A DNA stretch of 35,289 nucleotides from a virus, in UHGV virus genome UHGV-0114939; one strand, written 5' to 3'. Below are positions 3,008 to 32,589 of the stretch, one piece after another (position 1 is the stretch's first letter; the number at the start of each line of letters is the position of its first letter). The notes beneath the pieces are model-generated. The model was not told the DNA's origin. It saw only the letters and a program-made list of their open reading frames with translations, and did no database searches. The translations under genes were made by a program, and so were the position numbers.

Positions 3008-3463
3008 ATGGTCTTTGCAATGAGCAAATCTAATCTGGTCGCGTTCCGCATCCCATCTGAATTGCAGGATGAGTTTAATCGGTCTGTTCTCGCTTCTGGA
3101 GGGGATAAAACCTCCTGGCTTGTTGATGCGATTCGCATGAAGCTGGGACAGCCGGAAAAGTCTATTGATTCACGAATGCTTGGGCTCGTGGAGCGCATGG
3201 AAAAAGCTGCTGCGTCGCTTATTGCCGGAAAGCCGAACATCCCACCAAAGCCATATAACGAAACGGCAGTTATAAAGATCATTGCCGATACCATCCGACA
3301 GGGATTTGATAATGGGCGTGTGATAGCTGAACGGATCAATGAAGCAGGCTATCAAACAAAAGCTGGTAAAGCGTGGGATAAAGATATTTACAGCGCGTGG
3401 AAGCGTCAGGGAAGCAATGCTGAAAAGTTAAAAGCGGTGATTGATTGTAAGGTCAGCGTATAA
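3008..3463 (+). CDS. hypothetical protein, possible ribbon-helix-helix DNA-binding N-terminus
   Basis: ATG at 3008 (alternative ATG at 3020). N-terminal SNLVAFRIPSELQDEFNRSV has a beta-strand/helix pattern like RHH regulators. Operator-like palindrome TACAGT-GATAT-ACTGTA at 2973-2989 lies just upstream. Confidence 0.5.
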   Translation: MVFAMSKSNLVAFRIPSELQDEFNRSVLASGGDKTSWLVDAIRMKLGQPEKSIDSRMLGLVERMEKAAASLIAGKPNIPPKPYNETAVIKIIADTIRQGFDNGRVIAERINEAGYQTKAGKAWDKDIYSAWKRQGSNAEKLKAVIDCKVSV

Positions 3464-3542
3464 ACATGAGTGCCCATTGGAAAGCTGCTTGGGCCAATAC
3501 CTTTATACACCAGCAGGTGGTGACGATAGGTGAGGATCAGGA

Positions 3543-3764
3543 ATGAAAGGCAGAACGCCACACATTGAACATCAAGCCAACCACTTCTCGGATGTTCGCA
3601 ATGAGATGATTGCCATTCGCGGTGATATGCACGGCTTGGAGCGTCGAATTATTGATAAGATTGATGAAAATAGAGATAAGGCCAGTGAAAATCAAAAGTG
3701 GATCATCGGCCTGTTGATTTTATCAATTCTTATCCCGCTACTTATCGCATTGGTCACAAAATGA
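3543..3764 (+). CDS. XhlA-like small membrane protein (coiled coil plus C-terminal transmembrane helix)
   Basis: ATG at 3543 with GAGGA RBS. 73 aa ending in hydrophobic WIIGLLILSILIPLLIALV; architecture like phage XhlA/holin-associated proteins. Confidence 0.5.
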   Translation: MKGRTPHIEHQANHFSDVRNEMIAIRGDMHGLERRIIDKIDENRDKASENQKWIIGLLILSILIPLLIALVTK

Positions 3765-3788
3765 ATATCCAATGTGTATGCTGTCGAT

Positions 3789-3820
3789 GCTACGCGCGCG
3801 TACTTGTCGCAAAATATCAG
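3789..3820. promoter_or_regulatory. palindrome-containing repeat motif, copy 2 (contains perfect palindrome TACGCGCGCGTA)
   Basis: GCTACGCGCGCGTACTTGTCGCAAAATATCAG; see copies at 2397 and 4076. Confidence 0.4.
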
Positions 3821-4075
3821 GCAAAGGCCAGATTCAGAACGTCGTGATAACCACCAGCACAACATGAGATGTCATGTAACGCGATTTATCACGTCAGATA
3901 CATGTGATTGGTGTACCCGCATAAAACATTGTCATAGCGCGTCCTGTGCGCATATACGCCGATAATCAACACATCACCACCACTCTGTCTCATGTAGAGA
4001 ACACTTTTATGGTATCCCCCGCCATCGTGTGCGTACTGGTCGGACGCAGTTGCAAAAAATTTTGCAACTGATACC

Positions 4076-4102
4076 CCTCGCGCGCGTACTTGTCTCGAAA
4101 TT
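4076..4102. promoter_or_regulatory. palindrome-containing repeat motif, copy 3
   Basis: CCTCGCGCGCGTACTTGTCTCGAAATT. Partial copies GCGTACTGGTC at 4031-4041 and GCGCGTACTGT at 4162-4172. Near-palindrome CAGTTGC-A6T4-GCAACTG at 4048-4070. Confidence 0.4.
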
Positions 4103-4275
4103 GGTGTTTTGCTGTGGCAGTGATATCAGAAAAATCTTCCTGTTTCACATAAAGCGGATATGCGCGTACTGTAACGGCCCCATCAACTGGGAGCGGATTT
4201 GAGCCCCGAATGTGTAGGCAATGTCACTTAACGTTTGTCGCATACCTTCCAGAAAAAGCGATTCATGAATAATAG

Positions 4276-4300
4276 GGGCATGAATGCCCGGCGTACCGGG
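4276..4300. terminator. putative bidirectional intrinsic terminator (overlapping palindromes GGGCATGAATGCCC and CCCGGCGTACCGGG)
   Basis: GC-rich palindromes immediately 3' of the lipoprotein stop (4309), with T-rich tracts on both strands. Confidence 0.4.
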
Positions 4301-4308
4301 CTTATTAG

Positions 4309-5007
4309 TTAATTTGGTGCTTTAGGGTCAACATTAAAAGTTATATCACCTTCTGTATTTTTCCCGGCATAGCTAGCGGCTATTCTCGCCAACCCTTTGT
4401 AATCAGCAATTCCATCAGACTGTTGCGAGACGACTGAGCTACCAACTTTCCATAACATATTAATCTGCCGATTATTGAGATAAGCCTTGGCATCAAACGA
4501 CTGGAGTATCACCCCTGCGCCGTAGAACGTGTCCGTCACAGTTGTGTTATACGCGCCAGTAATTCCATAAGTAGGCGTATAAACTGTTGTTGCCGTTCCA
4601 GTGGTATTAGCTGTACCGTAGCCACCACCATAACTATTGAACGTGGTGTTCGAGTTTCCGTACGTTGTTGCTGAGCTCACACCAGTTTGCCCGTATATTG
4701 GGATGGTTACATTACGAGTATTTGAAATGGCCCCGCTTCTCAAAAAGTTCAAGAGAATTACCTGGTCAGCCAATTTTTCATCTTTAACTTGTGTATATCC
4801 TTGGCTTGATAAACTGGCGGCTACTACCGTAGCTATTTGAGTGTATTCAATCTGTTTGGTGTTCCAAAGTTCTTGGCTTGCGGGGATGATCAAGAACTTC
4901 TTACCGACAGATTGCCCGGAAGATAAAGCATTGACCGTTACTAACGGTTTTTGTACGCATCCAGCCAATAATGACAGGGATAATATTAAAAGAAGATTTT
5001 TAATCAT
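4309..5007 (-). CDS. lipoprotein (Thr/Gly/Tyr/Asn-rich), function unknown
   Basis: ATG at 5007 with AGGTGAG RBS. Signal peptide with lipobox MIKNLLLILSLSLLAG|C. Mature part rich in TTYGNSNTT / YGGGYG repeats. Confidence 0.75.
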   Translation of the reverse strand: MIKNLLLILSLSLLAGCVQKPLVTVNALSSGQSVGKKFLIIPASQELWNTKQIEYTQIATVVAASLSSQGYTQVKDEKLADQVILLNFLRSGAISNTRNVTIPIYGQTGVSSATTYGNSNTTFNSYGGGYGTANTTGTATTVYTPTYGITGAYNTTVTDTFYGAGVILQSFDAKAYLNNRQINMLWKVGSSVVSQQSDGIADYKGLARIAASYAGKNTEGDITFNVDPKAPN

Positions 5008-5157
5008 GATAATCTCACCTAAGAATTGCGTGGTTATAAATTATCATCACTGTAAGCGAATGTAAGCCACAGGCTCGTAATGTGATATGGAATTTTGATA
5101 GTTGGCTCAATATCAGTATGCCGTCCTTGGCTATTATGGTTTTGTTAGTTAGAGCGT

Positions 5158-7884
5158 CTATTCCCATTCGCTAACATCTTTCATGCCACTGAGGGTAGCT
5201 ACAATCCCGGCCCTTGTCAGTTTCACGAATTCTTCAGCCCCAACGGCATCACGAATTGCTTTCATGGCAATTTTATTGGCCGAAAATCGTTTCTCTGCTG
5301 CGGCGATCGCTGCTGGTGATGCCCCTGCGCGCACTGCTTTTGTAGCTTCCTGAACGGCTTTCTCTATCGCATATCGACCACTTCTTGTCGCCCCAATCTT
5401 AGCCACAGCATTTCTTAGCGCGCCACCAGCAACCAAACCACTAATCGAACCAATTACACCACCGCCAAAGCCTCCAGCGATCGCACCTGACTGTTGAACA
5501 CCGTTCATAATCACGCCGACGATCTTTGGAAGGCCTGAATCGAGCGTTTTGAGAGCCTCAGTTGTTCTTCCCGTGCGCTCTACGTATCGCTGCGGTCTGG
5601 TACTGGCTTTAGCGAGTACACCGAACTCTTTCATCATTCTACCGAGATCTGGCGCATGACGACTGATGGCGTTTACATTCTGCTGGGTCATGAGCTTGGC
5701 AAAATACTGGATACCTGACTCTTCACCGATTCCTCCCTTCTCTCCCTGCGCCACAGCATGCTGAAGAATAGATGCTATTGCAGGTTGGCGTTCTGCTTCC
5801 GGCAGCGCGGAGATAAGACGGTGAAAAGCTCCCGTTCCAGTGTTTGCGGATGCCTTAAGCGTATCGGCACCTTTTCTTACCATAGCGTCTGATGCGAGAT
5901 CTCGACCAAAAACAGATTCGGCATTTTGTTTGGCGATAATGTAACTTTTAGAGAGATCGTTAGCTTTCTGCCATTCTGTGAGGAAGTTTCCTTTTTCAGC
6001 CATGATGCGCATGTCATCAGTGATAGCTCTGCGCATTTCTCCGGCAATCCGGGCGGCATTGGCCTTACCTGCCCGGGTGTTTGCTTGTTCAGCATCAGCA
6101 AACTTAGCACGCCATGCCTTCATCCCGTCGAAGGTTATGCCGCCACCTTGGTTGTTGGCAGCCTGAAACTGTTTCATCTCCGGGCTGAGTGGAACATTGG
6201 CTGCTTTTTCTGCTTGGACGACAGCCATCCCATTACTCATTTTCATCCTTTCGCGTGGCATCGTGCTTCGCAGTTCTGCCCATGCCATATTCTCTGCTGT
6301 TTTCATATCACTGAGGCTCGCGATGATGCGCTCTTTAATTGCTGCGCTTTTTTCTGATGCGCTTCCAGACTCAGCACCGAAATCAGACAACTGCTTATTC
6401 AACTTTGAGGATATTTCATTGAAGGCCGTAAGGTGAGCATCCTGAACATTCCCAGGAGTTGATGCCAGAACACCTTCTGCTTGGGCAATTCCACGACTAC
6501 CTGAGCGCATTCCAGGCGTCAGGGTGTTGATATTAATACCAGTGATTTTCGCCGCCTTAGCGACATCATCTCTGACGTTTGATGCCTGCGATGCGATATG
6601 CTCTCGGCCTACGGCAGAACGCGCTGCTTTCGATACATCATTGGCGGTTTCCAGAGTATTTGCTGCCCCTAACACATGGCCTGATTGATTTGTATTACTC
6701 CGCAATACATCTCGCATTACGTCACTGGCTGTCTGTCCGCTCTTTATTAAAGCGCGTGCTCCTAGCGATCCTGCTAGGCCAATACCTGTCTCTTTTGCTA
6801 GGTCTTCTGGGCTGATCTGCCCGTTCTTTTGGGCGTTCACCAATGTACCTGGCAGGTTTTCTGCCAACATACTAGCCACCTTTGTGGCCGCACGTTCAGC
6901 ACGTGGAGCGTTGGCAACTGAAGAAGCTGCGGTAGCTGCCTTTCCTGCACCTAATCCTGTAATAAGGTAAGGTGCTAGCTGCTCACCAGCCTGCGCGTAT
7001 GGATCTGTAGGTTGGTCTACTGGGCGAAAGACAGGTGATATGGGCGTGTATGTGCCATCACCCACACCAAGCTTCTGAGCTGCCCATGCTCCGGCTGATT
7101 GCGCCGCATTGACTACCCCCACGCCTGCGTCCATTACATCAAACGGTATATTAGCAATCCCTCTGGCCATCTGCTCTGGCGCAGCTTTCAGCCCTGGCGA
7201 AAGATATTCCATCTCAGGATTAAGGTTAGACTTGGCTACTTGCTGCTGCGGTTCCCCGGCATTTTCATCGGCGAGAAACTGAGCTCTTTTCTGCTCCCAT
7301 GAACTGGCTGTTGGTAGTCCTGCTTCTATGTTCTTAAATTGCTGACGTTTTGCTTCCCATGCAGAAATATCTCCCACCTGAGAGATTTCTTTATCAAGCT
7401 CTGAGTAGTCAGGCTGCTGAAGATTGCGATGTTGACTGGTTTGTGCAAACTGCAAGATTTCACTGTCATCAGGGATTATTCCGGCATCTGCAAATTTACT
7501 TACGTAATTAGCCGTTTCATCTGGCAGTGTAGATTTACCGTTTCTGACGGCATTAATACGAGCATAGCCAGAATTATACCCAGCCAATGCCATACCTATA
7601 TCACCAAATCGCTTCATTCCTTTATTGAGATGGTTTGCTGCGATATCCATTTGCTTTTCAAATGGCAGTGAGCGCGGATCTGTTCCACGATAACCAGCAT
7701 CACTCATTACTGAGGGCATCAGTTGAGCAAATCCTCTAGCTCCTTTCGGTGACTCGGCACTTCCGTTACCACTAGATTCATTGCCAACTAATGTTTCCAT
7801 CGTCCCTGATGGGAAACCATATTTTTCATCGAGATGACGGGAATAGGCTTTCTGTTTTTCTGTCAGTTGTGCCATCATTGCCAT
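5158..7884 (-). CDS. phage internal virion / DNA-ejection-like protein with N-terminal lytic transglycosylase (SLT) domain
   Basis: 908 aa. N-terminus has SLT motifs (ETLVGNESSGNG...GFAQLMPS...ALAGYNSGYARI); the rest is Ala/Gln-rich and helical. Start overlaps the upstream gene by 10 nt. Confidence 0.8.
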   Translation of the reverse strand: MAMMAQLTEKQKAYSRHLDEKYGFPSGTMETLVGNESSGNGSAESPKGARGFAQLMPSVMSDAGYRGTDPRSLPFEKQMDIAANHLNKGMKRFGDIGMALAGYNSGYARINAVRNGKSTLPDETANYVSKFADAGIIPDDSEILQFAQTSQHRNLQQPDYSELDKEISQVGDISAWEAKRQQFKNIEAGLPTASSWEQKRAQFLADENAGEPQQQVAKSNLNPEMEYLSPGLKAAPEQMARGIANIPFDVMDAGVGVVNAAQSAGAWAAQKLGVGDGTYTPISPVFRPVDQPTDPYAQAGEQLAPYLITGLGAGKAATAASSVANAPRAERAATKVASMLAENLPGTLVNAQKNGQISPEDLAKETGIGLAGSLGARALIKSGQTASDVMRDVLRSNTNQSGHVLGAANTLETANDVSKAARSAVGREHIASQASNVRDDVAKAAKITGININTLTPGMRSGSRGIAQAEGVLASTPGNVQDAHLTAFNEISSKLNKQLSDFGAESGSASEKSAAIKERIIASLSDMKTAENMAWAELRSTMPRERMKMSNGMAVVQAEKAANVPLSPEMKQFQAANNQGGGITFDGMKAWRAKFADAEQANTRAGKANAARIAGEMRRAITDDMRIMAEKGNFLTEWQKANDLSKSYIIAKQNAESVFGRDLASDAMVRKGADTLKASANTGTGAFHRLISALPEAERQPAIASILQHAVAQGEKGGIGEESGIQYFAKLMTQQNVNAISRHAPDLGRMMKEFGVLAKASTRPQRYVERTGRTTEALKTLDSGLPKIVGVIMNGVQQSGAIAGGFGGGVIGSISGLVAGGALRNAVAKIGATRSGRYAIEKAVQEATKAVRAGASPAAIAAAEKRFSANKIAMKAIRDAVGAEEFVKLTRAGIVATLSGMKDVSEWE

Positions 7885-9194
7885 CCCTTAAGTTTTGCCT
7901 GATAGTAACTTTCCGGCAGATAGCCATGTGCGGTCACATAATCCTTAACCAGTGAAGGATCCTGCAACAGCATTTTGGTATCAGTTTCTTCGTCCTTAGA
8001 TTTGGTTACAGGAATACCGAGCCCGGCAATCTGTCGTTTCTGCATTCGAATAATTACGTCCTGCGCTTTATTCAACTCTCGCAAAAATGCCTCATTGCTG
8101 GTTGCTGACTTAATGCCATTTTGAGATTGCATAAGGGCAGCCCTTTCCCCTTCGGTTGGGTTAGAGCCAAAAGTCCCTTTGAGGCTAGGCAGAATAACCT
8201 TTAGGTTGTATTCATCAGCTTTGGCGCGTAGGCTTCGTGTGTCTTCTGCTACATCAGGAAGGAATCCAAACCCCAGCGTCAGGGGGTTATAGTTCTGCGA
8301 GCGGGTAACGGCCGAAGGATGTTTCCCTACAATTCCCGCCAGTTCATGACCCACTTCAAGCGCAGAGTTCAAGGAGTCGATGTTACCTGCAACAGTATTA
8401 ATTTTATCGTTCATCTTCTCCACTTTCGCCTGCTGTATCTTGCTCAGTTCAGCATTGAGCTTGTCTCTCTCGATGTCATTTTGAGCACGTCCAAGTCGTG
8501 CTTTCAGAACCATTTCTCTCGTGCGTAGTTGGTTATCGGATAGGACTTTGAACTGCTCCATATCGAGACGTCGATTACCCTGTTCCGCATTAACCTGAGC
8601 ATTATATGCGGATGTATCTGCGTTCTGCTGTGCAATGCTCTGCCCTTGCTGCTTCTCTTGAACACTAAAGTAACTATTTGGATCAGCATGGAGGTGGATG
8701 AGGTCAGTGATTCTGTTGAATTCCTGTGGGTCATTCTGCCAAGACTGATAAACCTCTTCAGCAGGAAGACCAAATCGCTGTAATACTGGATTTGCCTGCT
8801 GAATGGCCTTCTGCATGGTCAGTGGATCTCCAGTTTGTGACGCAAGACGCAGATTCATGGCAGCGTCAGCGGTCTGTCGATTTTGCTCAGCATCAATGAA
8901 TCCCATCTGTTTTTGAGAATCAGCCATAAACTGGGGATACTGGGCCATTAACTTCTGCACGCCAACACGATCATTATTAGCTACCGCACTACCCAACCGT
9001 GCCTGATATTCTTTTAACTGCTGGGAAATTTGCGCCTGCTGATTAATCTCAGCAACGCCTCTTAGCCCCTGTAGCGCCATTAAACCTACGTTTGGCTGCT
9101 GCTGATACTGCACAGGCTGAGGAACGGAAGAACGAGGAGCATTATCATTTTGCGGTGCCATGCTAGGCAGCCCGCCAAGTTGCCATGTCGCCAT
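7875..9194 (-). CDS. phage internal virion / ejection-like protein (Gln-rich)
   Basis: 439 aa; ATG at 9194 overlaps the stop of the upstream gene. Size and position match the middle ejection protein of podovirus modules (P22 gp20 / T7 gp15-like position). Confidence 0.65.
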   Translation of the reverse strand: MATWQLGGLPSMAPQNDNAPRSSVPQPVQYQQQPNVGLMALQGLRGVAEINQQAQISQQLKEYQARLGSAVANNDRVGVQKLMAQYPQFMADSQKQMGFIDAEQNRQTADAAMNLRLASQTGDPLTMQKAIQQANPVLQRFGLPAEEVYQSWQNDPQEFNRITDLIHLHADPNSYFSVQEKQQGQSIAQQNADTSAYNAQVNAEQGNRRLDMEQFKVLSDNQLRTREMVLKARLGRAQNDIERDKLNAELSKIQQAKVEKMNDKINTVAGNIDSLNSALEVGHELAGIVGKHPSAVTRSQNYNPLTLGFGFLPDVAEDTRSLRAKADEYNLKVILPSLKGTFGSNPTEGERAALMQSQNGIKSATSNEAFLRELNKAQDVIIRMQKRQIAGLGIPVTKSKDEETDTKMLLQDPSLVKDYVTAHGYLPESYYQAKLKGWQ

Positions 9195-9871
9195 TAGAAT
9201 CCAAGCCCCCCAACAAGACCAATAAGCCCACCACCAATAGCGCCGGCCGCAGTTCCTATTCCAGGAACAACGGAACCAAGTTGCGCACCCGCTAAAGCGC
9301 CTGATGCTGCCCCACCAATACCACGCGCAAGACTGGATGGCTGCTGCGCCTGACCTGCACGAATAGCGCCAAGCCCCTGCAAGAGTTGTCCGGTATTATT
9401 GGCGTAGTTTTGCCCTGCCGTTGCCTGCCCTGATGCCGCATTCATCCCGACATTTAGCAGGTTTCCATAATTTTGCATTTGCCCACTGAGCCAATTGTTA
9501 TAAAGCATGGGCGCAATGGAAGATAACTGGTTACTGGTAGCTGTTGAGCCAAGCCCCCCGGTAGCTTCTGCTGAGACAAGGTTCTGATAACGGGCCTGAT
9601 CTGCCTGTGTTTTATATAAACCAGAACCAAAGAAATCATTCGCGGCTTTATTCTGCCCTTCCAGAGTCATCAGTCCTTGTAGTTGTTGTAAAGCAGGCAA
9701 TCCGACTTCTGCATACGGCTTGAGATTATTCATCACCGTATTCCACTGCTCGCGCTGCAAATCAATTGCCTGCTGCTGGGCCTTCGCCTGAGCTTTAGAG
9801 GCACCACCATCACCGCCTTTTTCGTATACGGCACGATTGAGATGTTTATGAGCTATGTGGGTAATTAACAT
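9194..9871 (-). CDS. phage internal virion / ejection-like protein with glycine-zipper C-terminus
   Basis: 225 aa; ATG at 9871 with AAGGAA RBS. C-terminus GAQLGSVVPGIGTAAGAIGGGLIGLVGGLGF; size similar to P22 gp7. Confidence 0.6.
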   Translation of the reverse strand: MLITHIAHKHLNRAVYEKGGDGGASKAQAKAQQQAIDLQREQWNTVMNNLKPYAEVGLPALQQLQGLMTLEGQNKAANDFFGSGLYKTQADQARYQNLVSAEATGGLGSTATSNQLSSIAPMLYNNWLSGQMQNYGNLLNVGMNAASGQATAGQNYANNTGQLLQGLGAIRAGQAQQPSSLARGIGGAASGALAGAQLGSVVPGIGTAAGAIGGGLIGLVGGLGF

Positions 9872-10326
9872 TCGCTGAATTCCTTATATTGTTGCCGAGT
9901 TAACTGATAAAGCGTTACGCCGACGGGTTTACCACATCTGATATAAGCATCATCAAGGTGACCAACACGGGTAGCGCCAAGCAAACGGATAATTGCCCGT
10001 CCGTATTTGGTGGTGTCAGGAACCATGGTAATGCTGTTAAGGAATGGTGAGTTTTCGAGAAGCCATTTGCAGAATAATCGATGCCCTTGCAGTGCATATT
10101 CACCACGGAATCCGGGGTCGTACACCGCATGGCATTCAACAACGCTATGCCAGAAGTTACGCACTTCATGAACGCCAGCCAGCACTAATCCTTCGTAGAT
10201 GCCGAGATATACCGCATCAGGCTTGATGTAGTACGTGTGCCCCGGCTCAACAATATTTTCGGTATTGCCTGGCTCGTTAAGAAAGGCCTGTAATCGCACA
10301 GGGTTATCAATAAATTTTAGTTCCAT
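9865..10326 (-). CDS. hypothetical phage protein, first large gene of the ejection-like module
   Basis: 153 aa; ATG at 10326; 7-nt overlap with the next gene. Confidence 0.6.
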   Translation of the reverse strand: MELKFIDNPVRLQAFLNEPGNTENIVEPGHTYYIKPDAVYLGIYEGLVLAGVHEVRNFWHSVVECHAVYDPGFRGEYALQGHRLFCKWLLENSPFLNSITMVPDTTKYGRAIIRLLGATRVGHLDDAYIRCGKPVGVTLYQLTRQQYKEFSEC

Positions 10327-10342: not shown

Positions 10343-10504
10343 TCACATACAGCCTGCCAGCGCCTTATCTATTAACCCTCGTGCAATTTCATGCAGAGTT
10401 GGCGCTACTCCAATTCCTGATTTTTTACGCTGCTCTTCCTGAATTTTCTTTATCGCTTCCATTTGCTTCTCACTTATCAATACCGGCTTTACTGAAATAG
10501 CCAT
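10343..10504 (-). CDS. small (53 aa) putative ribbon-helix-helix DNA-binding protein, below the ORF-track threshold
   Basis: Hand-translated: ATG at 10504 preceded by AAGGGGG; MAISVKPVLISEKQMEAIKKIQEEQRKKSGIGVAPTLHEIARGLIDKALAGCM; stop TGA at 10343-10345, 16 nt before the 153-aa gene start. Confidence 0.5.
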   Translation of the reverse strand: MAISVKPVLISEKQMEAIKKIQEEQRKKSGIGVAPTLHEIARGLIDKALAGCM

Positions 10505-11088: not shown

Positions 11089-13848
11089 TCATTCTTCAGA
11101 TGAGTTATAATCTCCTGGCTGGTAATTGAGTACATAAACGTTTATTTGTCGTCCCTGAATACGTGGTGATTTTCTTTGGTATCCACGACCGCTGTTTGGT
11201 GGGGTTAGCATCCCGGCTTTTTTCAACACTTCAGCAAACTGTTTTGCGTTGAAACCACATGCGATCTCCTTTTCAAATGTGGCCGGGAATGTGTAGAAAA
11301 TCATTGGGCTTTCGTCATGTTCTCCACGCTGACGGTATCCGGCTAAATCTTTGATGGGCAAATCTGCCGGGCTGTATGGAAATGGTGCAAAACGGCTAAG
11401 CCCATAGGCATTAAGAAATGCCTCCGTTTGTTCAATAATCTGCTGATGCTCTTTGTTACCTGTGCCGAACTCACGCAACCATGCGTTATAGCTGTGCTGT
11501 ATCGCATCACGGCATGTCTGAGCATCCCAGCCTGTTACAACCTCGCCTAACAACAATGCGGCCTCCAGAATGGCAAATCGCGCGGCTACACGGTGAACCT
11601 GCTCACCATAATCGGATGGGATCAGGCTTCTCCATCTGCTTTCGCAATCACGAACGGTTTTAATAGCCTGTTGCTGGTGGTCTGCCAGCCATTTAATCCA
11701 CTCACGCCCGGACGCGCCGTGGTGATGCTGGTAAGCGTCTTTCAGTGCGTCTGCGTGCTGTTTTCCGTTCTGGTAATCGTGAAAGCGTACTGCTTTACTC
11801 AACGGAATATTCAGCAGTCGCACCAGTTGCCCGGCTTTGGTTTTTCGCCCGGAAGTAGCGATAAATGTTTCTAAATCCATTTCTCCGGTGCTGATTGCCA
11901 CTGTACGCCAACGTTTTAGATCCCGGTTTCCACCATCTTTAGCGCCTTGCAGTTTCCCTACACCGTTAAATAACGCATAGGCAGACTGTGAAACGCTGAC
12001 AGGATCAGCGCCCTGACCAACTTCATCAAGCGGCATTAGTCCGTCATTGTGGGCGGCGGCCTCATTTGCCAGCCCCAGCGCGGTTCCGTACCACGTCAGC
12101 CGCAGTAAATCAGGGTTGCCGTATAAGCTGCTCGCCACGTTTGCCGTGGTGGTCTTACCTGCGCTCGACTGCTCATAGAAATGAATGCCGAACCCGTCAG
12201 CGCCCACCAGCCCAATCAATGGCGCTGCCAGTGCTGCGCCGATCCCGGTCATCATTGAATAGTTACCAAAGGCCAGACGCGCCACGTTATCACGCCAGCT
12301 TTTCGCGCTCCCTGAGACGGTATATCCGGCTGCGGCTGAGCTTCTCCCGCTGAACAGCACAGGATTTTCAGGTGTTCCGATGATTTCCCCATCAGGCATG
12401 ATGTACGCTCCGCATTGCCAGCCAGTGGCATGAGCAACACGCCACAATTCACGAGAGCCACTGCGTTGTAGCCAGTCTGCCAGTATTGCTCTGAGGCTGC
12501 TTTTGGTCGTGACATTTACCCCACCAGCTTTAAGTGTGCGCCATCCTTCACGTTCACCAATATCAGCCAGTGGAATGGCAGCGGTTGTCGGCGTTTCAGA
12601 ACCAAACGACAGCCAGCGAAGAATGAGATACTGGTCTTTATCGTCTCTGCCAGTACCGATAACGCTTAACGGAGAACATAACCAGCTTTCGTTATTGATG
12701 ATTTCTCCACTCTGGCTGTCAGCTCTCGGAGATACCCAATAAATACCATCCTCGCGGCTTTCTATTCTTGGTTTCAGTGGGTCGGTATCCATAACCTTAA
12801 AATCGCTTCCCTCAATGGTCTGTGGCTCCTGTTTCACGCCATTACCCTGTGGTTGGTACATTGACTTATTGAACGCTTCTGTGGCGCATTTAATGCCGTG
12901 TTTTTGGTGGTAATCATTCCAGTCTGCTTTGTGATCTGTCGGGGGTAATGCCACCCATCCAGAAACAGATAAAGCTGCTTTTTCTGCTGCTATTCTCCCC
13001 GTGTTTTGTCTTCCTTCGCTGTGGTCGTTATCCGCAGCAATGATGATTTGTGCTGAAGGAAATTTATCCCGCAGTACCTGGGCGACATATAACAGGTTCC
13101 CGGCATCAATCGCCGCCACTGTCAGCGCCTCTGGACGAATTAAATGGGCAGATAATGCCGTTGCCAGCCCTTCTGCGATTAAGATGCTCTGTGTTGTTTC
13201 TGGTGCGTTTATGGCGTGATATGCCCCTCGCTTTGCCGAACCTGTCAGGAGTCTTTTTTCACCATGTGAGGTAATAGTCTGTGCTGCTGTGACTGCGCCG
13301 GATTTATCCACCAGCGCCAGCAACAGAGATCCATCGGGCAACACGGGGAATGTAAAATCACCTACCCCTTTCGCAACCAGATAATCAGATTTGCCGTTTA
13401 CAGCCTTTCTGCGCATGTCATCAAACTGACGGGAAAACGTATCCCGTCTTTGTTGTTCGTCCTTCTCTGCCCTTTTCAGGCGCTCCTGTTCGCGTCGCTG
13501 GCGCTCGGTTTCCAGTTGTTCCCGTTTCTGGCTGGTGGCTTCTGGTGTTTCCGTTGTCCGGTAATCAATACCCAGAACATCAGCGGCAAGAAGCGCCGCC
13601 TCTGTTGTGTCGCAGTTATTTACGCGTTTAATTAAATCCAGCCCATCACCAGCGCCGCACTGATTACAGATGAAGCTACCGCGCCCGTTGTCGTCGAACC
13701 GGAATCGATCTTTGCCCCCACATGCAGGGCAGGGAGCATGACGGCGCGGAGAGTCAGGGACATTTATGTTCAGGCAGCCCAGCACATGAGGCCAGTTGTT
13801 TTCAGACGCACTGATAACCTGACGGATAAGATCAATGTTTCGCATCAC
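11089..13848 (-). CDS. P4-alpha-like primase-helicase (zinc ribbon + Toprim + DUF927-type NTPase)
   Basis: Zinc ribbon CPACGG...FICNQCG; Toprim acidic motif IIAADNDH; Walker A YEQSSAGKTTT. Track start at 13848 is a GTG; an ATG follows at 13845. Confidence 0.85.
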   Translation of the reverse strand: MMRNIDLIRQVISASENNWPHVLGCLNINVPDSPRRHAPCPACGGKDRFRFDDNGRGSFICNQCGAGDGLDLIKRVNNCDTTEAALLAADVLGIDYRTTETPEATSQKREQLETERQRREQERLKRAEKDEQQRRDTFSRQFDDMRRKAVNGKSDYLVAKGVGDFTFPVLPDGSLLLALVDKSGAVTAAQTITSHGEKRLLTGSAKRGAYHAINAPETTQSILIAEGLATALSAHLIRPEALTVAAIDAGNLLYVAQVLRDKFPSAQIIIAADNDHSEGRQNTGRIAAEKAALSVSGWVALPPTDHKADWNDYHQKHGIKCATEAFNKSMYQPQGNGVKQEPQTIEGSDFKVMDTDPLKPRIESREDGIYWVSPRADSQSGEIINNESWLCSPLSVIGTGRDDKDQYLILRWLSFGSETPTTAAIPLADIGEREGWRTLKAGGVNVTTKSSLRAILADWLQRSGSRELWRVAHATGWQCGAYIMPDGEIIGTPENPVLFSGRSSAAAGYTVSGSAKSWRDNVARLAFGNYSMMTGIGAALAAPLIGLVGADGFGIHFYEQSSAGKTTTANVASSLYGNPDLLRLTWYGTALGLANEAAAHNDGLMPLDEVGQGADPVSVSQSAYALFNGVGKLQGAKDGGNRDLKRWRTVAISTGEMDLETFIATSGRKTKAGQLVRLLNIPLSKAVRFHDYQNGKQHADALKDAYQHHHGASGREWIKWLADHQQQAIKTVRDCESRWRSLIPSDYGEQVHRVAARFAILEAALLLGEVVTGWDAQTCRDAIQHSYNAWLREFGTGNKEHQQIIEQTEAFLNAYGLSRFAPFPYSPADLPIKDLAGYRQRGEHDESPMIFYTFPATFEKEIACGFNAKQFAEVLKKAGMLTPPNSGRGYQRKSPRIQGRQINVYVLNYQPGDYNSSEE

Positions 13849-18912: not shown

Positions 18913-20127
18913 TCATGCGTGTTTTTCAAACACCATATGCACCACATTTCCGCCATGCTCGAGAGAATCCATATAGTCGGCATACCATTGAAGCATCTCC
19001 CGCCGTCCATCCAGATATTGCGCATGGTTGTATGTGCCACGAATTGAGTTCTTATCAACGTGAGCGAGCTGCGTTTCTATCCACGCGGTGTTATAGCCCT
19101 GCTCATGCAAAATCGTGCTCATAGTGTGTCGGAACCCATGACCAGTTACACGTCCAGCGTAGCCAATGCGCTTAAACACTTGGTTTATGCTGGCCTCACT
19201 CATTGTTTTCCTTGGATCATTGCGCCCGGGAAACATAAGAGGGTAATTGCCTGTTATTTCTCTAATCTTCCCAATAAGCGAAAGAGCCTGCTCAGACAAT
19301 GGCACAATATGAGGCCGCCGCATTTTCATACGTGAAGCGGGTATCTCCCATATAGCCTTGTTGAAATCAATTTCATCCCATAATGCGCCACGTAGTTCGC
19401 CAGTTCGCAAGCCGGTGATAATCAGTAGACGAGCCGCCATAACAACCAATGCGCTTCCTGAGTAACTGGACAATGCCTTGAAAAAATCAGGTAATTCTTT
19501 GGTCGTAAGGAAAGGGTAATGATTAGATTCATGGCCTTGCATCGCGCTAGTAAGGTCTGGTGCAGGGTTATACTCTGCGCGACCAGTGACTATTGCATAA
19601 CGGAAAACTTCCCCGCACCGCTGCCTCACTTTTTTGGCTTTTTCTGTCGCACCGCGCCCCTCGATGCGCCGCAGCACATTCAGAAGTTCAAGTGGTTTGA
19701 TTTCGGCGATTGGTTTTTTGCCAATGTAAGGGAACACATCTTTGTTGAAGGCTTCGAGGATGTCTGAAGCATAACCAGCAGACCATTTTTTTAATTTGCT
19801 GCTGTGCCACTCAAGGGCAATATCTTTGAAGGTGTTGTTTAACTGCGTTTCCCGGGCAATCTTTTCCTCTCGTTTCGCTTCCATCGGATCGATACCACCA
19901 GCGATACCTCTTTTCGCATCTTCTCGTTTTGCCCGAGCATCGGCTAGAGTAACCTCAGGATACACACCTAGTGCCAATAGCTTCTCTTTACCAGCTACAC
20001 GATATTTAAGTCGCCAGTATTTACCTCCATTAGGTTTTACCAAGAGATACAAACCGCCACCATCGGCCAGCTTGTAAGCCTTCTCTTTTGGCTTGGCTGT
20101 GTCTATTTGACGGGCATTGAGTTTCAC
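18913..20127 (-). CDS. P4-type tyrosine integrase
   Basis: GTG start at 20127 with GGAGGT RBS. N-terminal arm-binding signature LADGGGLYLLVKPNGGKYWRLKYR; C-terminal catalytic HGFRHT and Tyr region RGTYNHAQY. Lies next to the tRNA-derived att core. Confidence 0.9.
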   Translation of the reverse strand: MKLNARQIDTAKPKEKAYKLADGGGLYLLVKPNGGKYWRLKYRVAGKEKLLALGVYPEVTLADARAKREDAKRGIAGGIDPMEAKREEKIARETQLNNTFKDIALEWHSSKLKKWSAGYASDILEAFNKDVFPYIGKKPIAEIKPLELLNVLRRIEGRGATEKAKKVRQRCGEVFRYAIVTGRAEYNPAPDLTSAMQGHESNHYPFLTTKELPDFFKALSSYSGSALVVMAARLLIITGLRTGELRGALWDEIDFNKAIWEIPASRMKMRRPHIVPLSEQALSLIGKIREITGNYPLMFPGRNDPRKTMSEASINQVFKRIGYAGRVTGHGFRHTMSTILHEQGYNTAWIETQLAHVDKNSIRGTYNHAQYLDGRREMLQWYADYMDSLEHGGNVVHMVFEKHA

Positions 20128-20328: not shown

Positions 20329-20443
20329 ATTCCAATGACGTGTTTCACAAGTCATTGATTCTTCGAACCGAATGCGCTGCTCCTGAAAGGCAAAACTGAC
20401 ACAACTGATCACGGTTGCCCCTGAATATTAGATCGGGGGAAAG

Positions 20444-21646
20444 ATGAAATACAAGCCTAATGCGTACCTTGTTAAAGAAAACTCGTCGGTATACTCCGTC
20501 AAGGTCACTATTCCGCCTTATATGCGTTCCCTTTTTGGGAATCGAACAGCATTCATGCGTACAACAGGCACGGCAGATATCAGGGAAGCCCGAATCATTC
20601 GTGACAAAGTCATGCACGAGTTTTTTGCTATCAGAGACAGACTCAAGCCAAAACCACAACGTAACAGTGTTGATCGCGTCCTGGTGGAACTGCGCTCTAT
20701 CAACCAGCATGTAAGCCAAAATGATGGGATAGACTTCGCCACGGCTCGTGTGTGTCCCTCCCTTGTCCAACTGCGGGATGAATTTATTGTCCAACACAAT
20801 GACAGGCGCAAGCTGTCTACCTTGAGCAAGTACATTAAGGCGGTGGAGGTCTTCACGGCTCATTTCCGGCGTAAGGATTTCCAGTTGCAGGAAATCAACA
20901 GGACTATGGTCACCGATTGGTTAGACAGCGCCAAGCAGGAGAAAGCCAGCCAGACACTGGCGAATTATCTTGGCTGTCTGTCCCAACTAGTGGCACTGGC
21001 TCAGAACCGTTATCACGATGCGCCGAAAGAGAATGTATTCGCGGGCCACAAACTGGACGTGCGCCATGATCGAGAAAGCTACGAACCCTTTAGCGGGGAT
21101 GAACTAGCTAAGGTGTATGCGGTGCTTGATGAAGAGATGAAAGCCGTTGCGATGGTGGGAATGTATAGCGGTATGCGCCTTAACGAAATCTGCTCTCTGC
21201 AAATCAGCAATATCAAAACCGTTGAGGGGGTATGGTGTTTCGAGGTGACGGAGGGTAAGACACGCAATGCGGCTCGCCTGGTTCCAATTCATAGCCGATT
21301 GACGACACTCGTTAAAGACCTCATCCAGAACAACCACAATGGCTTCTTATTCTACCATGCCAGCATCACAGAACGTGCAGACGGCAAGCGCTCAACGTGG
21401 CATACACAGCGATTTACACGGGCTAAACGTAAAGCGTTGGCTGAGAAAGGCACTGAGCGGAAGGTGTTTCATAGTCTGCGGGGAATGTTCATCAGCCAGC
21501 TTGATCGTGGTGGAGTCCCAGAGGACAGGATCGCATTGATTGTGGGTCATGAGCGCGGGAAAACCGAATCATTCCGCACCTATAGCCAAGGGGCTAGCAT
21601 GAAGGAGTTGGCGGATTATGTAGACATTGTCTCACATAGCATATAA
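20444..21646 (+). CDS. tyrosine integrase (site-specific recombinase)
   Basis: ATG at 20444 with GGGGGA RBS. Catalytic-region motifs HSLRGMF and RTYSQG. Diverges from the att core, opposite the element A integrase. Confidence 0.85.
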   Translation: MKYKPNAYLVKENSSVYSVKVTIPPYMRSLFGNRTAFMRTTGTADIREARIIRDKVMHEFFAIRDRLKPKPQRNSVDRVLVELRSINQHVSQNDGIDFATARVCPSLVQLRDEFIVQHNDRRKLSTLSKYIKAVEVFTAHFRRKDFQLQEINRTMVTDWLDSAKQEKASQTLANYLGCLSQLVALAQNRYHDAPKENVFAGHKLDVRHDRESYEPFSGDELAKVYAVLDEEMKAVAMVGMYSGMRLNEICSLQISNIKTVEGVWCFEVTEGKTRNAARLVPIHSRLTTLVKDLIQNNHNGFLFYHASITERADGKRSTWHTQRFTRAKRKALAEKGTERKVFHSLRGMFISQLDRGGVPEDRIALIVGHERGKTESFRTYSQGASMKELADYVDIVSHSI

Positions 21647-21792
21647 AAGTAAAACACACCATAAAAACAGCCAAAAAAAAACAATAGTTATAACTTAATA
21701 AAATTTAATGCTAATTAATTCAAATCATTATCATCTCGCTTCATTTTTTATTTATTTGGAAATATATTGATACAAAAAAGGACGGATTGACT

Positions 21793-22434
21793 ATGACTCA
21801 GCGAATTCAGCAGATCCAACGTATCGTGGAACAGCAAGGAATCACTCAACTGGTACATTTCACTAAGGCCGAAAATCTTCCAAGTATAATGGAACATGGG
21901 ATAGTCCCGATTTCTCGGATTGGAGAGTTTGGTATCACGCCTGCCACTAATGATCAACTTCGCCTTGATGGTCATTTAGATGGTACGTCTCTTTCTATCA
22001 CCTTTCCTAATCACAGAATGTTCTACAAATATAGGCTGGAAAATCAAGGGGTTGATTGGGTGGTGTTAGGTATAAAACCATCTATTCTATGGACAAAGGA
22101 TTGCGCGTTTTGTCGCCACAATGCTGCGGATGCTCGAATAAGCGTCAAGGCATTGGATGATTTGAGGCTTCCTGAATCACTTGCGGGAATGTTTAGCGAG
22201 ATAGACGGGTATGAAACACGAGATGGTCAAAAACTTTTAACATCCGATCCAACAGACGAACAAGCAGAAGTGTTAGTTTTTGATGTAATTGAACCTGAAC
22301 TGATCTTAGGGGCGGCCTTCAATAGCAGAACCGCAAACACACTTTACCAAAATCTCTTCGGAGAAAAAAAGATTATACTTAATGACAAAACCAATGGTTT
22401 ATTTGGTTCTCGTTCATTTAAGCGTAAGTGGTAA
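21793..22434 (+). CDS. DarT-like (DUF4433) DNA ADP-ribosyltransferase toxin candidate
   Basis: Track start at 21787 is TTG; ATG at 21793. N-terminal LVHFTKAENLPSIMEHG and C-terminal DEQAEVLVFD match the DarT hallmarks H-F-T...NL.SI..G and QAE-hLV (from memory). Lower GC than flanks. Confidence 0.65.
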   Translation: MTQRIQQIQRIVEQQGITQLVHFTKAENLPSIMEHGIVPISRIGEFGITPATNDQLRLDGHLDGTSLSITFPNHRMFYKYRLENQGVDWVVLGIKPSILWTKDCAFCRHNAADARISVKALDDLRLPESLAGMFSEIDGYETRDGQKLLTSDPTDEQAEVLVFDVIEPELILGAAFNSRTANTLYQNLFGEKKIILNDKTNGLFGSRSFKRKW

Positions 22435-22438
22435 AACA

Positions 22439-23146
22439 ATGGCACAAAGGCCCGTATATATACCTGTTAAAGAAAAATCACTCTTCGTAAAAACTGAGCT
22501 TGTAGATTTTACGTGGTTCCCGGGAATGTCAGTCTCACAAAAGCAGAAATCAATTGACTCGCTCCATGAAGCAGCAAAGACAAGCCTGCCTAATGTGGAC
22601 AAAATCCTTGAGATTTCCAGCAAGTCCCGTGAAACCCTCGGTGTTGCACTGAGTGCTTTCAACCTTTCTTTCACGACCCTGAAACAGCAACGTACATTAA
22701 CTATCGAAAGTGCGTTTCAAGGTAGCAAAGTGTTCCAACGTGGGGGTCCATATACCGACATGTTCGACATGACTCCTCGCGAAGCCAAAAAGGACAAGCG
22801 TTTATTGACCTCTGGCAGACTGACCGGATTCAAATTTTTTGGTAAAGAATGGGAACTGGAGCCACGTACTGCATTTTATGATTGGCTGTATATAAGTGCA
22901 TTGAAAAAAAGTACCGAGCTAGCAGAGCAACTAATTGAATATTCAGCATTTACTGACATAGAGTTCAATCCTGAGCGCTCGATAAATTGCCAAGCATATT
23001 CTGCGGCATTATATGTTTCATTATACAAACAAGGCATTCTTGATGATGCCATTGCATCTAAAGAGAGTTTCCTAGAAACGATCAAAAGTGCATCAATAAG
23101 TAATGCTCTTCAAGATGAAACAACTCAATCGGGCTTTGGGTTTTGA
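22439..23146 (+). CDS. hypothetical protein, cognate partner of the DarT-like gene (no macrodomain or NADAR signature seen)
   Basis: ATG at 22439, 4 nt after the DarT-like stop. 235 aa lacking the Gly-rich loops of macrodomains and the NADAR motifs. Confidence 0.6.
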   Translation: MAQRPVYIPVKEKSLFVKTELVDFTWFPGMSVSQKQKSIDSLHEAAKTSLPNVDKILEISSKSRETLGVALSAFNLSFTTLKQQRTLTIESAFQGSKVFQRGGPYTDMFDMTPREAKKDKRLLTSGRLTGFKFFGKEWELEPRTAFYDWLYISALKKSTELAEQLIEYSAFTDIEFNPERSINCQAYSAALYVSLYKQGILDDAIASKESFLETIKSASISNALQDETTQSGFGF

Positions 23147-23148
23147 AA

Positions 23149-23165
23149 GCCGGGATTAACCCGGC
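23149..23165. terminator. hairpin GCCGGG-ATTAA-CCCGGC between convergent genes (putative bidirectional terminator)
   Basis: Perfect 6-bp stem directly after the stops of 22439..23146 (+) and 23167..23373 (-). Confidence 0.4.
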
Positions 23166-23166
23166 C

Positions 23167-23373
23167 TCAATGTTTCAGTTTAATCTTTCGATGCTGCTCA
23201 TAATGAGCAAGTGCTGATTCCCAACCGTAATCATTCACCCGCTGCAAAAAAGTGCTGCGTGGAACGTCGAAATATCTCGCAATGGCTGACAGATTCAACC
23301 AGTTATCGGATTGATTATCAAGACTCATTGCCAGAAGTGGCAGACCTTTAGAATTGAACAGTTTCATGTGCAT
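23167..23373 (-). CDS. small helix-turn-helix protein
   Basis: ATG at 23373 preceded by AAGGAAAGGAGAT. HTH-like LSAIARYFDVPRSTFLQRV. Confidence 0.5.
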   Translation of the reverse strand: MHMKLFNSKGLPLLAMSLDNQSDNWLNLSAIARYFDVPRSTFLQRVNDYGWESALAHYEQHRKIKLKH

Positions 23374-23437
23374 GTGTGTATCTCCTTTCCTTTGCCTCGC
23401 CTGGCAGCGGGAGCAATGCGCTCCCGCAAACCGCTTT

Positions 23438-24478
23438 TTATGCTGTTGGTAATAGCGTCATCTTACAGACCAGATCCGGCCTGAAGTTGTATGCCATGAG
23501 GCTGTATTCACTATATAAATTCCGATTTCGTAACTCGTCGAAAGCTCTGTATGCGTACCAATCTTCAACATCACCAGAAGCGGAGATTTCAAGATGGCGA
23601 GCACATGGACCAATGAAGCGTCCCATAGGCAAACTCTGCTCAACCGGAGCATTTCCAAAGACCGGAACAAGGAAAGCCTCGTTTGACTTGATACCGCTGA
23701 ATGCTGAATCGCTGACTTCGATCAGACGCACAGAACCCAGCATAAACGAACTAAAGCCTGGCAGAACATCAGACGGGAACAGCACATCAGAACCAACCAG
23801 CCCGTTTGAATAAACTAGCAATTCACGAATCTGAGGAGAATATCTCACAGCACGGTAGGCATCAGATCCGCACAGCAGAACCCAACCACGCAGATATTGA
23901 GTTAGTCCACCCATCAGCGCTTTAGTGGCGCTAACCTGATCGTCAATGTCGCGCATCGGGTCATCATTCACACCTTGGTGCAAATCAGCGGTTCGCTGGT
24001 TCAGGGAGAATTCTACAGCCCAATCGATCTCATTTTGCTGAGTACCCCAAGCGTTAACTTTATTGAAAATCAAAGCCTGCCAATAGGCATATTCACGTGA
24101 GCGCTCAAACTTGGCACGCATCTGAATAAACTTGTTGGCCTCAATCTCATCAAGAGACTGCTCCATAGTGCTGCCAGGTTTACGGTAACCTTTGAGATCT
24201 GCCGAAGTCACACGGTCAGTCACACCAGACCAAGGCAATTCGTATAAATACGAGCCTGCTGTCGGCTTCTCGATAGTCCCCCACTCCGAACTGAAACGCA
24301 TCAATGGCGCATCCACACCAATAGATGCCTCTTGGATACGATCCATACTAACTTTGTGGGAATCTGCGATCTGACGGTCTGCAAATACATCAAGGTGAGT
24401 CAGCAGTAAATTGCTCTGCGGAACCTGAGTACGGAAGACCTTGCTGTAATTAACATAATCGAATGATTTAATAGCCAT
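23438..24478 (-). CDS. major capsid protein, lambda gpE-like
   Basis: 346 aa (lambda gpE is 341) directly downstream of a gpD-like gene; C-terminal architecture loosely parallels gpE. Distant similarity judged by eye only. Confidence 0.55.
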   Translation of the reverse strand: MAIKSFDYVNYSKVFRTQVPQSNLLLTHLDVFADRQIADSHKVSMDRIQEASIGVDAPLMRFSSEWGTIEKPTAGSYLYELPWSGVTDRVTSADLKGYRKPGSTMEQSLDEIEANKFIQMRAKFERSREYAYWQALIFNKVNAWGTQQNEIDWAVEFSLNQRTADLHQGVNDDPMRDIDDQVSATKALMGGLTQYLRGWVLLCGSDAYRAVRYSPQIRELLVYSNGLVGSDVLFPSDVLPGFSSFMLGSVRLIEVSDSAFSGIKSNEAFLVPVFGNAPVEQSLPMGRFIGPCARHLEISASGDVEDWYAYRAFDELRNRNLYSEYSLMAYNFRPDLVCKMTLLPTA

Positions 24479-24501
24479 TTTTGAAGTCCTTTTCTTGTTT
24501 G

Positions 24502-24852
24502 TTATTCTGCGATGACAGCATCGTCAGAGGTCAGGCGAATGTTTCCGTTGGCGGTCAATGCTGCTAGTGCTGCATTTGTTGCTGAACCCATTACGGCGCG
24601 GATTGCTTCTGGGTACACATAAATTAGGCGGTCAGCCACGATGACAGGAACATCAGAACCTGCCTCAGCGTAGGAGAGGCACAGAAGCGCATCAGTCCCA
24701 GAGGTGTAAAGCGTTCCGGTAGAGGTCACCACGGAACCTGGTTCCACAGCCTGTACGAGTGTCGCGAATACAATCGTTCTGCGGTCAAAATTGGCATATG
24801 CCGAATTTTTCACCACGTTGTTATACGTTTTTGGATAATCTTCCAGTTTCAT
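24502..24852 (-). CDS. head decoration protein, lambda gpD-like
   Basis: 116 aa; ATG at 24852 with GGAGAT RBS. LIYVYPEAIRAV resembles the gpD region EDVLWPEAAS. Precedes the capsid gene as D precedes E in lambda. Confidence 0.55.
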   Translation of the reverse strand: MKLEDYPKTYNNVVKNSAYANFDRRTIVFATLVQAVEPGSVVTSTGTLYTSGTDALLCLSYAEAGSDVPVIVADRLIYVYPEAIRAVMGSATNAALAALTANGNIRLTSDDAVIAE

Positions 24853-27959: not shown

Positions 27960-28073
27960 TTTTATAGTATCTCCAGAGAAGGATGCTCCCGCCGATCAGG
28001 ACGTGACGAAGCGCCACCCAGATCCAAAGCAGGAAAAAGATGTAATCAAAGTTCATTGGCTCCCGATGTGGGA

Positions 28074-28547: not shown

Positions 28548-28562
28548 TTATTCCTCCAATTG

Positions 28563-32498: not shown

Positions 32499-32589
32499 GT
32501 GAAAATAATACTGAGTTGAATTATGTTGTGGTTAATTAATGCAAAATGAAGGCAGGAATAAGTTCCCACCTTCACAATAAGTAGTCGTA

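Follow-up and report, generated by a model that had tools for sequence, protein, structure and literature searches.

What does a lipoprotein gene do directly behind the DNA-ejection genes of a phage-type element? The question is raised by a 35,289-nucleotide stretch of viral DNA (UHGV virus genome UHGV-0114939), called the window throughout, in which an open reading frame (ORF) for a predicted lipoprotein of 232 amino acids (ORF list, window 4309..5007, minus strand) lies directly downstream of the gene for a gene 16-type ejection protein. A preliminary description, which gave no strand, had drawn attention to it as a Thr/Gly/Tyr-rich lipoprotein of a prophage. Our tentative answer, in which we place a little less than even confidence, is that the protein would serve in superinfection or surface exclusion from the outer membrane. 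This reading is based on the position of the gene, on SieA as the alternative cargo of the same slot, and on an analogy of fold. By sequence, the lipoprotein belongs to none of the TraT, SieA, or known phage exclusion lipoprotein families, and no published description of the gene, or of islands like the one that carries it, was found in the searchable literature on DUF4136, ejection-protein satellites, and P22-like exclusion lipoproteins.

Family and predicted fold of the lipoprotein

Judged by its homologues (E-values of 1e-142 to 1e-41) and by a ratio of nonsynonymous to synonymous substitution rates (dN/dS) of 0.039 against homologous copies only 80% identical in nucleotides, the ORF lies far beyond chance, and the gene is under strong purifying selection. 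A Shine-Dalgarno sequence, AGGTGAG (5020..5014, minus strand), is located 6 nucleotides (nt) before the ATG and is kept in homologous loci. Database versions of 272 amino acids begin farther upstream, with an extension that lacks conservation; the start of the signal peptide is the internal Met. The identical protein is deposited as hypothetical protein WP_000594596.1. Copies are present in 76 of 5,426 Escherichia coli genomes, all of them at least 99% identical, single-copy, and chromosomal.

The N-terminus, MIKNLLLILSLSLLAG before the cysteine (C), displays the positively charged n-region (K3), the 11-residue hydrophobic core, and the lipobox ([LVI][ASTVI][GAS]C; here L-A-G-C, with Cys17) of bacterial lipoproteins. 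The lipobox given in the preliminary description, LLAG before the cysteine, is indeed present, and Cys17 is kept in at least 90% of 28 aligned homologues; lipoboxes were also found in nearly all of 36 distant genomic homologues. Residues 1-16 would form the signal peptide, and the codon of the predicted lipid-modified Cys17 is at 4957-4959 (minus strand). Under the Lol rule of E. coli, a residue other than Asp at position +2 sorts a lipoprotein to the outer membrane. Since the residue following Cys17 is Val and not Asp, the mature protein is predicted to reach the outer membrane. It comprises 216 amino acids, has an isoelectric point of about 8.9, and is globular, with no C-terminal transmembrane segment.

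The Thr/Gly/Tyr richness noted earlier is real, and it is local: residues 103-166 consist of 28% Thr, 19% Gly, and 12.5% Tyr, and the remaining mature protein is of ordinary composition. The same region had been called repetitive, which holds only loosely; it contains five [ST]-x-Y-G-like motifs, and no tandem repeat was found at the DNA level in the lipoprotein gene. This stretch is the most conserved part of the family. All 15 invariant columns of the 28-homologue alignment (P103, G106, Q107, T108, G109, T115, G117, G127, T141, P145, T146, Y147, G148, T150, and G151) fall within it, in motifs of the form P-x-[YWF]-GQTGVSSATTYG and TTxYxPTYGITG, and positions 101-153 are essentially without charged residues across the 28 homologues. 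In the window protein, the charge-free segment comprises residues 103-158 (4534..4701, minus strand) and is predicted to form a long protruding β-hairpin. An origin by low complexity or slippage was rejected, given the lack of a DNA tandem repeat and the conservation of the region, the highest in the protein.

An AlphaFold2 model of the window protein, made with the family alignment, has a mean predicted local distance difference test score (pLDDT) of 85.6 and displays a two-layer α/β core. Strands E94-124 and E132-172 make up a single, very long hairpin with pLDDT values of 62-84, the minimum being at the tip; strand 1 of this hairpin has no clear alternating hydrophobic face. A second AlphaFold model, of a member with 27% identity, has a pLDDT of 88.7 and the same hairpin. 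Signal peptide aside, the helices in both models only pack on the core sheet, and the β-hairpin is inserted between core strands. The models thus very probably describe a core of the LptE/PelC/TraT/CsgG/DUF4136 type with a projecting, charge-free hairpin of about 25 residues per strand. The structural relatives of the model, with their scores, are BDI_1242 (4l8n; 12.9), PelC (10.6), decameric TraT (9e2v; 9.4), the DUF4136 protein 4f54 (8.9), CsgG (8.6), and LptE (about 7.5). In Foldseek, the hairpin also matched, weakly, the stems that lysenin, epsilon toxin, aerolysin, CDTb, and anthrax PA have in their pore state.

Scanned directly, the protein had no match at normal thresholds in Pfam, PHROGs, NCBIfam, or PADLOC, and the PADLOC-DB defence models gave 0 families at E 0.01. 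With three family members as queries, tblastn found no match in 50,697 phage genomes, nor did tblastn against 72,556 plasmids or a profile search of PDB sequences. A structure search of BFVD returned, apart from noise, only an LptE-like viral protein (E 7.7e-4). The homology search, in contrast to these scans, returned 37 proteins, with E-values spanning 1e-142 to 1e-4. The close relatives are from Enterobacterales (Kluyvera, Pluralibacter, Serratia, and Rouxiella), and distant relatives with 28-35% identity carry PF13590 (DUF4136). The window protein itself reaches only E 0.062 and 14.2 bits with DUF4136, below the 32.8-bit Pfam cutoff, and does not match it at E 0.01. Because 20 of the 28 aligned relatives, scanned singly, do match (best E 1e-17), we place it in the family by transitive homology, and its model has the fold of the solved DUF4136 member. 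The lipoprotein therefore belongs to DUF4136 by transitive homology and fold. Within this family, which also holds proteins such as BT2437 (PDB 4f54), and relative to BDI_1242 (PDB 4l8n), the family of the window protein is defined by its invariant GQTGVSS...PTYGITG hairpin. As DUF4136 has no known function, membership says nothing on mechanism.

A profile search of 1.84 billion representatives yielded 3,888 clusters at E<=1e-3 and 671 at E<=1e-30; the family is thus large. It spans very diverse diderm lineages; those in which it was found among GTDB species genomes include Desulfobulbus, Pirellulales, Akkermansia, Nitrospirae, Kiritimatiellia, Leptospira, Waddliaceae, and Sulfurovaceae.

The slot after gene 16 and its occupants

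The preliminary description had placed the gene after an ejection-like module, and the upstream genes are indeed ejection genes of the P22 type, those for gp14, gp7, and gp20 matching in both Pfam and PHROGs. Directly upstream of the lipoprotein gene is the gene for the gene 16-type ejection (DNA transfer) protein (5158..7884, minus strand), which has 908 amino acids and an N-terminal SLT lytic transglycosylase domain (Pfam SLT, 1.1e-12; phrog_770 DNA transfer protein, 5e-121). It is longer than P22 gp16 (609 amino acids) and very divergent from it except for a conserved patch of 76 residues. With the gp16 of a P22-like prophage of Serratia, in which the lipoprotein is likewise encoded, it shares 44% identity. 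Farther upstream on the same strand are gene 20 (Inj_translocase, 7875-9194; Pfam 3.7e-22), gene 7 (P22_gp7, 9194-9871; 6.6e-73), and gene 14 (DUF2824, 9865-10326; 1.5e-61). Just upstream of gene 14, an ORF for 53 amino acids (10343-10504, minus strand) without a family match is kept, as a hypothetical gene, in all related islands.

In P22, it is sieA that lies directly after gene 16. SieA blocks DNA injection, escape mutations being found in gp16 and gp20, and all examined sieA homologues are located between genes 16 and 9 (PMC10883804). The window lipoprotein gene likewise comes directly after gene 16, in an island without gene 9. That the two genes can occupy the same slot is seen in a sister island in E. 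coli 97_3250 (L018), where gene 16 is a different one, without an SLT domain that Pfam can detect, and where a convergent gene for a 204-residue membrane protein (9502-10116, plus strand) comes after it. Over 108 residues, this protein is 29% identical to P22 SieA (pairwise E 8e-8); the RYPGEA motif is aligned, and on that alignment the protein is a genuine SieA homologue. In E. coli UTME-9 (L017), the slot holds a small protein of 129 residues with multiple transmembrane segments (9750-10139, plus strand). Similarity among the islands ends at about 4202, the left breakpoint, and the swapped cassette consists of the slot gene plus the gene 16 allele, which appear to be exchanged together. The non-coding segment just downstream of the lipoprotein gene (3784-4202) is common to 548 of the 5,426 E. 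coli genomes, and the 3' end of the window gene 16 was found, at megablast sensitivity, only in E. coli genomes that also carry the lipoprotein gene. A co-occurrence of SieA with the lipoprotein was considered and rejected, the downstream ORFs of the Enterobacteriaceae islands L002 and L004 not being SieA-like.

The likeness to SieA (types A-C) is thus one of position, and extends to expression in that P22 sieA has an annotated promoter and the window gene a promoter-like element of its own. The proteins themselves are without sequence similarity. SieA is a multi-pass inner-membrane protein with the motif FxRYPxEAxxFNK, whereas the window protein is an exported lipoprotein that has neither this motif nor a transmembrane helix beyond the signal peptide; furthermore, sieA is convergent to gene 16, whereas the window gene is co-oriented with it. 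The preliminary description had stated that lipoproteins in this position are often exclusion factors. The connection between slot and exclusion stands, given sieA in P22 and a SieA homologue in the sister island, but the precedent for a lipoprotein is undocumented, SieA being a multi-pass inner-membrane protein.

Homologues recur after ejection or internal-virion genes and before a tailspike or fibre gene in independent phage lineages. A Serratia homologue with 62% identity lies in a complete P22-like prophage between the SLT-containing gene 16 and arc/tailspike. In Serratia nevei (L012), a homologue with 39% identity follows the gene for a 921-residue protein, its start overlapping the stop of that gene, and precedes the tailspike gene of another podovirus-like prophage. 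In T7-type prophages on IMG/VR contigs, the copy lies between the genes for internal virion proteins and a tail fibre gene, with a gap of 12 bp to the former (L023 and L025), and the copies on other IMG/VR contigs follow other large virion proteins, again before a tail fibre gene. The Rouxiella homologue sits in a lambda-like prophage between gpK (NlpC/P60) and gpI/J, and a metagenomic copy is located at the cargo end of an integrase/AlpA/primase island. A distant member in Vibrio fluvialis (L009:8536-10708) is carried by an integrative island, 185 bp downstream of a DRT2 reverse transcriptase gene (E 3.5e-207); this island also encodes an integrase, KilA-N, RNase H, and a resolvase. Since the DRT2 system is described as consisting of one gene only, the Vibrio lipoprotein is probably a neighbour and not a partner; a role as a retron or DRT effector was rejected on this ground. 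At 36 genomic loci in other phyla, no Pfam family recurred among 123 flanking proteins, which makes operon-based inference impossible there.

A promoter-like element, a terminator hairpin, and a G+C content below that of gene 16 (42.5% versus 49.6%) give the lipoprotein gene the look of a moron. Within the 150-bp spacer upstream of the gene, the element at 5038..5066 (minus strand) combines a -35 hexamer CTTACA (5066..5061), a 17-nt spacer, and a TG-extended -10 hexamer TAATTT (5043..5038). It scores 8 of 12 plus the TG, under the threshold of the scan, and we infer that it may act as the gene's own promoter. The surrounding block GCTTACATTyGCTTACAGTGATGATAAATTT is kept in E. coli, other Enterobacteriaceae, and an IMG/VR contig (alignment A3), and the P22-like prophage of Serratia has kept ATGATAAATTT as well. 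The motif GCTTACA is directly duplicated (5051-5067, minus strand); this duplication, which overlaps the element and is kept across the Enterobacteriaceae homologues, could be a regulator binding site. A second, weaker promoter-like site, TAGACG-16-CATAAT, lies at the end of gene 16 (5133..5160, minus strand), and the number of such sites is not above shuffle expectation.

The palindromic terminator mentioned in the preliminary description corresponds to GC-rich, terminator-like hairpins at 4276..4301, one site per strand in the scan. The stem, GCCCGG-uacg-CCGGGC (4286-4301), is located 8 nt past the stop codon, and the RNA fold of the minus strand has a z of -1.5 (81 nt). As the U-tract is better on the plus strand, the hairpin looks like a bidirectional terminator shared with the convergent plus-strand genes at 3008-3764.

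Proposed exclusion at the outer membrane and competing readings

Very few blocks to phage DNA delivery at the level of the outer membrane are understood, those known being the masking of FhuA by Llp and Cor, and SieA acts at the inner membrane. The outer-membrane lipoproteins Llp of T5 and Cor of phi80, N15, and HK022, which have about 60-80 amino acids and are encoded beside tail, receptor-binding, or entry genes, block FhuA and represent the established route by which lipoproteins exclude phages. The window protein resembles them in being a phage-encoded, predicted outer-membrane lipoprotein; they are, however, small and unrelated in sequence, and the window protein has no PHROG or sequence match. 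The candidate is cheap to test, consisting of one 700-bp gene with an apparent promoter of its own in a slot whose alternative occupant is SieA, and its predicted TraT/CsgG-like architecture hints at a mode of action.

TraT offers an analogy of fold. This exclusion lipoprotein has an LptE-like core, two or three transmembrane helices, and a long β-hairpin, and the hairpins of ten subunits form a ring-shaped sheet; it has been reported to protect against some phages, and its chromosomal homologues have repeatedly been co-opted by mobile elements (PMC11733297, PMC12658005). The LptE-like core and projecting hairpin of TraT (IncF surface exclusion and complement resistance; PDB 9fs5, 9fsm, 9e2v) are also found in the window model. 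At the sequence level, the window protein reaches E 0.091 and 12.9 bits with PF05818, against a cutoff of 31, and hhalign gives a probability of 66% over only the N-terminal 76 columns, which include the signal peptide. Moreover, the TraT ring is anchored by amphipathic transmembrane helices, which the window protein does not have; its hairpin, at about 56 residues, has roughly double the length of the TraT hairpin (26 residues) and is free of charge, and the weak Pfam alignment would put this hairpin roughly at the position of the TraT transmembrane helices. TraT is carried by conjugative elements, the window protein by a phage-type element.

If the exclusion reading is correct, the lipoprotein would oligomerise, by analogy to its ring-forming relatives (the TraT decamer, the PelC dodecamer, and the CsgG nonamer), and the hairpins of the subunits would join as a β-barrel in or at the outer membrane. 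Such a complex could hinder incoming phages in adsorbing, in using a secondary receptor, or in assembling their trans-envelope ejection conduit. The lipoprotein would then be for the outer membrane what SieA is for the inner, a pairing like that of TraT and TraS in F plasmids, where the order traG-traS-traT (L071:5426-9552) parallels gene 16-sieA and gene 16-lipoprotein. The logic of TraS and TraT, in which entry exclusion at the inner membrane is combined with surface exclusion at the outer membrane, would thereby extend to phages and satellites. In a family of about 3,900 clusters that has no assigned function, at least the members borne by phages and islands would gain one, and the joint exchange of an exclusion gene and a gene 16 allele would become easier to explain. 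A bolder version, which we consider doubtful, is that the hairpins form a long CsgG- or aerolysin-like barrel that plugs, decoys, or mis-triggers the gp7/gp20/gp16-type ejection conduit of podoviruses. The lipoprotein would in that case represent a new class of exclusion factor, taken up many times over by prophages, satellites, and defence islands across many diderm phyla and travelling as a cassette with the matching gene 16 allele.

Several observations weigh against exclusion. The family has no match in PADLOC, PHROGs, or the phage genomes searched with the three family queries; sequence homology with TraT is not established, and transmembrane helices of the TraT type are missing. The outward face of the hairpin consists mostly of Thr, Gly, and Tyr and is not classically lipid-facing, so that its insertion into a membrane is uncertain. 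A dN/dS of 0.04, together with a hairpin tip that varies little between the close homologues of Enterobacteriaceae, gives no signature of an arms race. The distant diderm members occur in unrelated, non-conserved contexts, and the ancestral function was therefore probably not specific to phages. In some phages, the 12-bp gap (L023 and L025) and the overlap of start and stop (L012) leave no room for a promoter; this points to late co-transcription and suggests that the protein is expressed there with the late genes, not only from a resident element. Finally, if a resident satellite excluded P22-like phages, it might shut out its own helper as well.

Some of these observations fit a host-fitness moron instead, which would make its carrier more resistant to serum or complement, stiffen the envelope, or raise stress tolerance, as has been reported of TraT and of lambda Bor and Lom, and would have no effect on phage entry. 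We consider this unlikely, although the TraT-like core and hairpin speak for it: TraT gives complement resistance and has been proposed to stiffen the outer membrane (PMC12658005), and carriers of the island include avian pathogenic E. coli (APEC) O78, a blood isolate, and NC101, in which vat is next to the island. Strong purifying selection without a sign of an arms race, and the wide distribution of the family in non-phage contexts, point in the same direction. Serum resistance, however, would be irrelevant in Serratia, Rouxiella, and environmental viral contigs, where close homologues are found; the repeated placement after ejection genes and the replacement by sieA in the sister island point to phage entry, and the Vibrio copy neighbours a DRT2 defence gene. 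Should the lipoprotein have no effect on phages, it would be one more conserved lipoprotein moron.

An oligomeric outer-membrane channel resembling CsgG or a β-pore, serving not exclusion but export, or the permeabilisation of the envelope while the carrying phage or a helper goes through its lytic cycle, appears quite unlikely. The long, charge-free Gly/Thr/Tyr hairpin does resemble the CsgG fold and the stems of toxins in the pore state, and the gene is tightly coupled to late genes in some phages. The core fold is shared with CsgG and PelC, but the window protein has a single, much longer hairpin, whose strand 1, as noted above, has no clear alternating hydrophobic face, and its gene is flanked by ejection genes and not by partners such as csgE, csgF, or pelB; conserved neighbours are likewise missing. 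The gene also lies outside any lysis cassette, and the island has no annotated lysis genes. A spanin or lysis role was rejected for this reason and because the protein has neither a C-terminal transmembrane segment nor an Rz-like partner. A virion component was rejected as well, since a Sec-exported lipoprotein cannot be packaged into a tailed virion that is assembled in the cytoplasm.

Exclusion could also take place at wall penetration, with a periplasm-facing lipoprotein inhibiting virion-borne peptidoglycan hydrolases and thereby blocking the SLT domain of incoming gp16-type proteins. The restriction of the window gp16 3' end to E. coli genomes with the lipoprotein gene would agree with this, as would the muralytic domains encoded upstream of the homologues in other lineages (SLT in the Serratia gp16, an endolysin domain in the T7-type internal virion protein, and NlpC/P60 in the lambda-like gpK) and the presence of sieA in the sister island whose gp16 has no Pfam-detectable SLT domain. 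This linkage may, however, be mere adjacency, as ejection and tail modules usually contain such domains. The lipoprotein also has no similarity to Ivy or MliC/PliC (no family matches), and an inhibitor would leave the invariant long hairpin and the many stand-alone, non-phage members unexplained, so that we regard this alternative as very unlikely. A conserved passenger without a phage or host-fitness role under laboratory conditions would suit a protein without annotation or matches in defence and phage family libraries, but is scarcely credible in view of the dN/dS of 0.039, the 15 residues invariant even in very distant relatives, and the conserved promoter-like block upstream.

The host island and its surroundings

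The preliminary description had assigned the gene to a prophage, a label that does not hold. The carrier is a satellite-like or P4-like integrative island with an ejection module. It extends over about 1-20337 of the window and comprises, besides the ejection genes (5158-10326), a tyrosine integrase gene (18913-20127), a TOPRIM/DUF927 primase gene (11089-13848), an ash-family gene, an antirepressor gene, and a gene for a small helix-turn-helix regulator; the annotation of these roughly 20 kb shows no capsid, portal, terminase, tail, or lysis gene. In complete E. coli genomes, the same island of about 20 kb is found at tRNA-Thr (thrW), beside proA. It occupies the same region in NC101, where it adjoins the vat toxin gene, and one other E. 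coli strain has it between yicC and dinD. It would be unusual for a satellite to bring along ejection proteins of its own, and the island, of which at least the flanking segment is present in about 10% of E. coli genomes, is possibly a more surprising object than the lipoprotein.

At the cargo end, the minus strand encodes a PRiA4_ORF3-family protein (184-726), an unannotated ORF of 144 amino acids (770-1204), a SocA/Panacea-domain protein (1207-1893) that may belong to a toxin-antitoxin or defence module, and a PerC-family regulator (2467-2748); none of these genes (184-1893 and 2467-2748) had a PADLOC match. The two convergent plus-strand genes at 3008-3764 encode a protein of 151 amino acids that belongs to no family and one of 73 amino acids with a coiled-coil-like N-terminus and a C-terminal hydrophobic tail (phrog_6324, E 3e-11; weak holin match, E 0.0037).

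A second mobile element adjoins the island (20337-35289). In related genomes, tRNA-Thr lies at the junction between the two, which suggests that they were inserted in tandem at one site; no tRNA was detected in the window itself. The second element carries its own integrase gene (20444-21646), a DarTG-type defence system of DarT1 and a NADAR antitoxin (21787-23146), a gene for a capsid-E-like protein (23438-24478), a further ORF with an integrase domain (31938-32498), and a resolvase gene (34514-35065).

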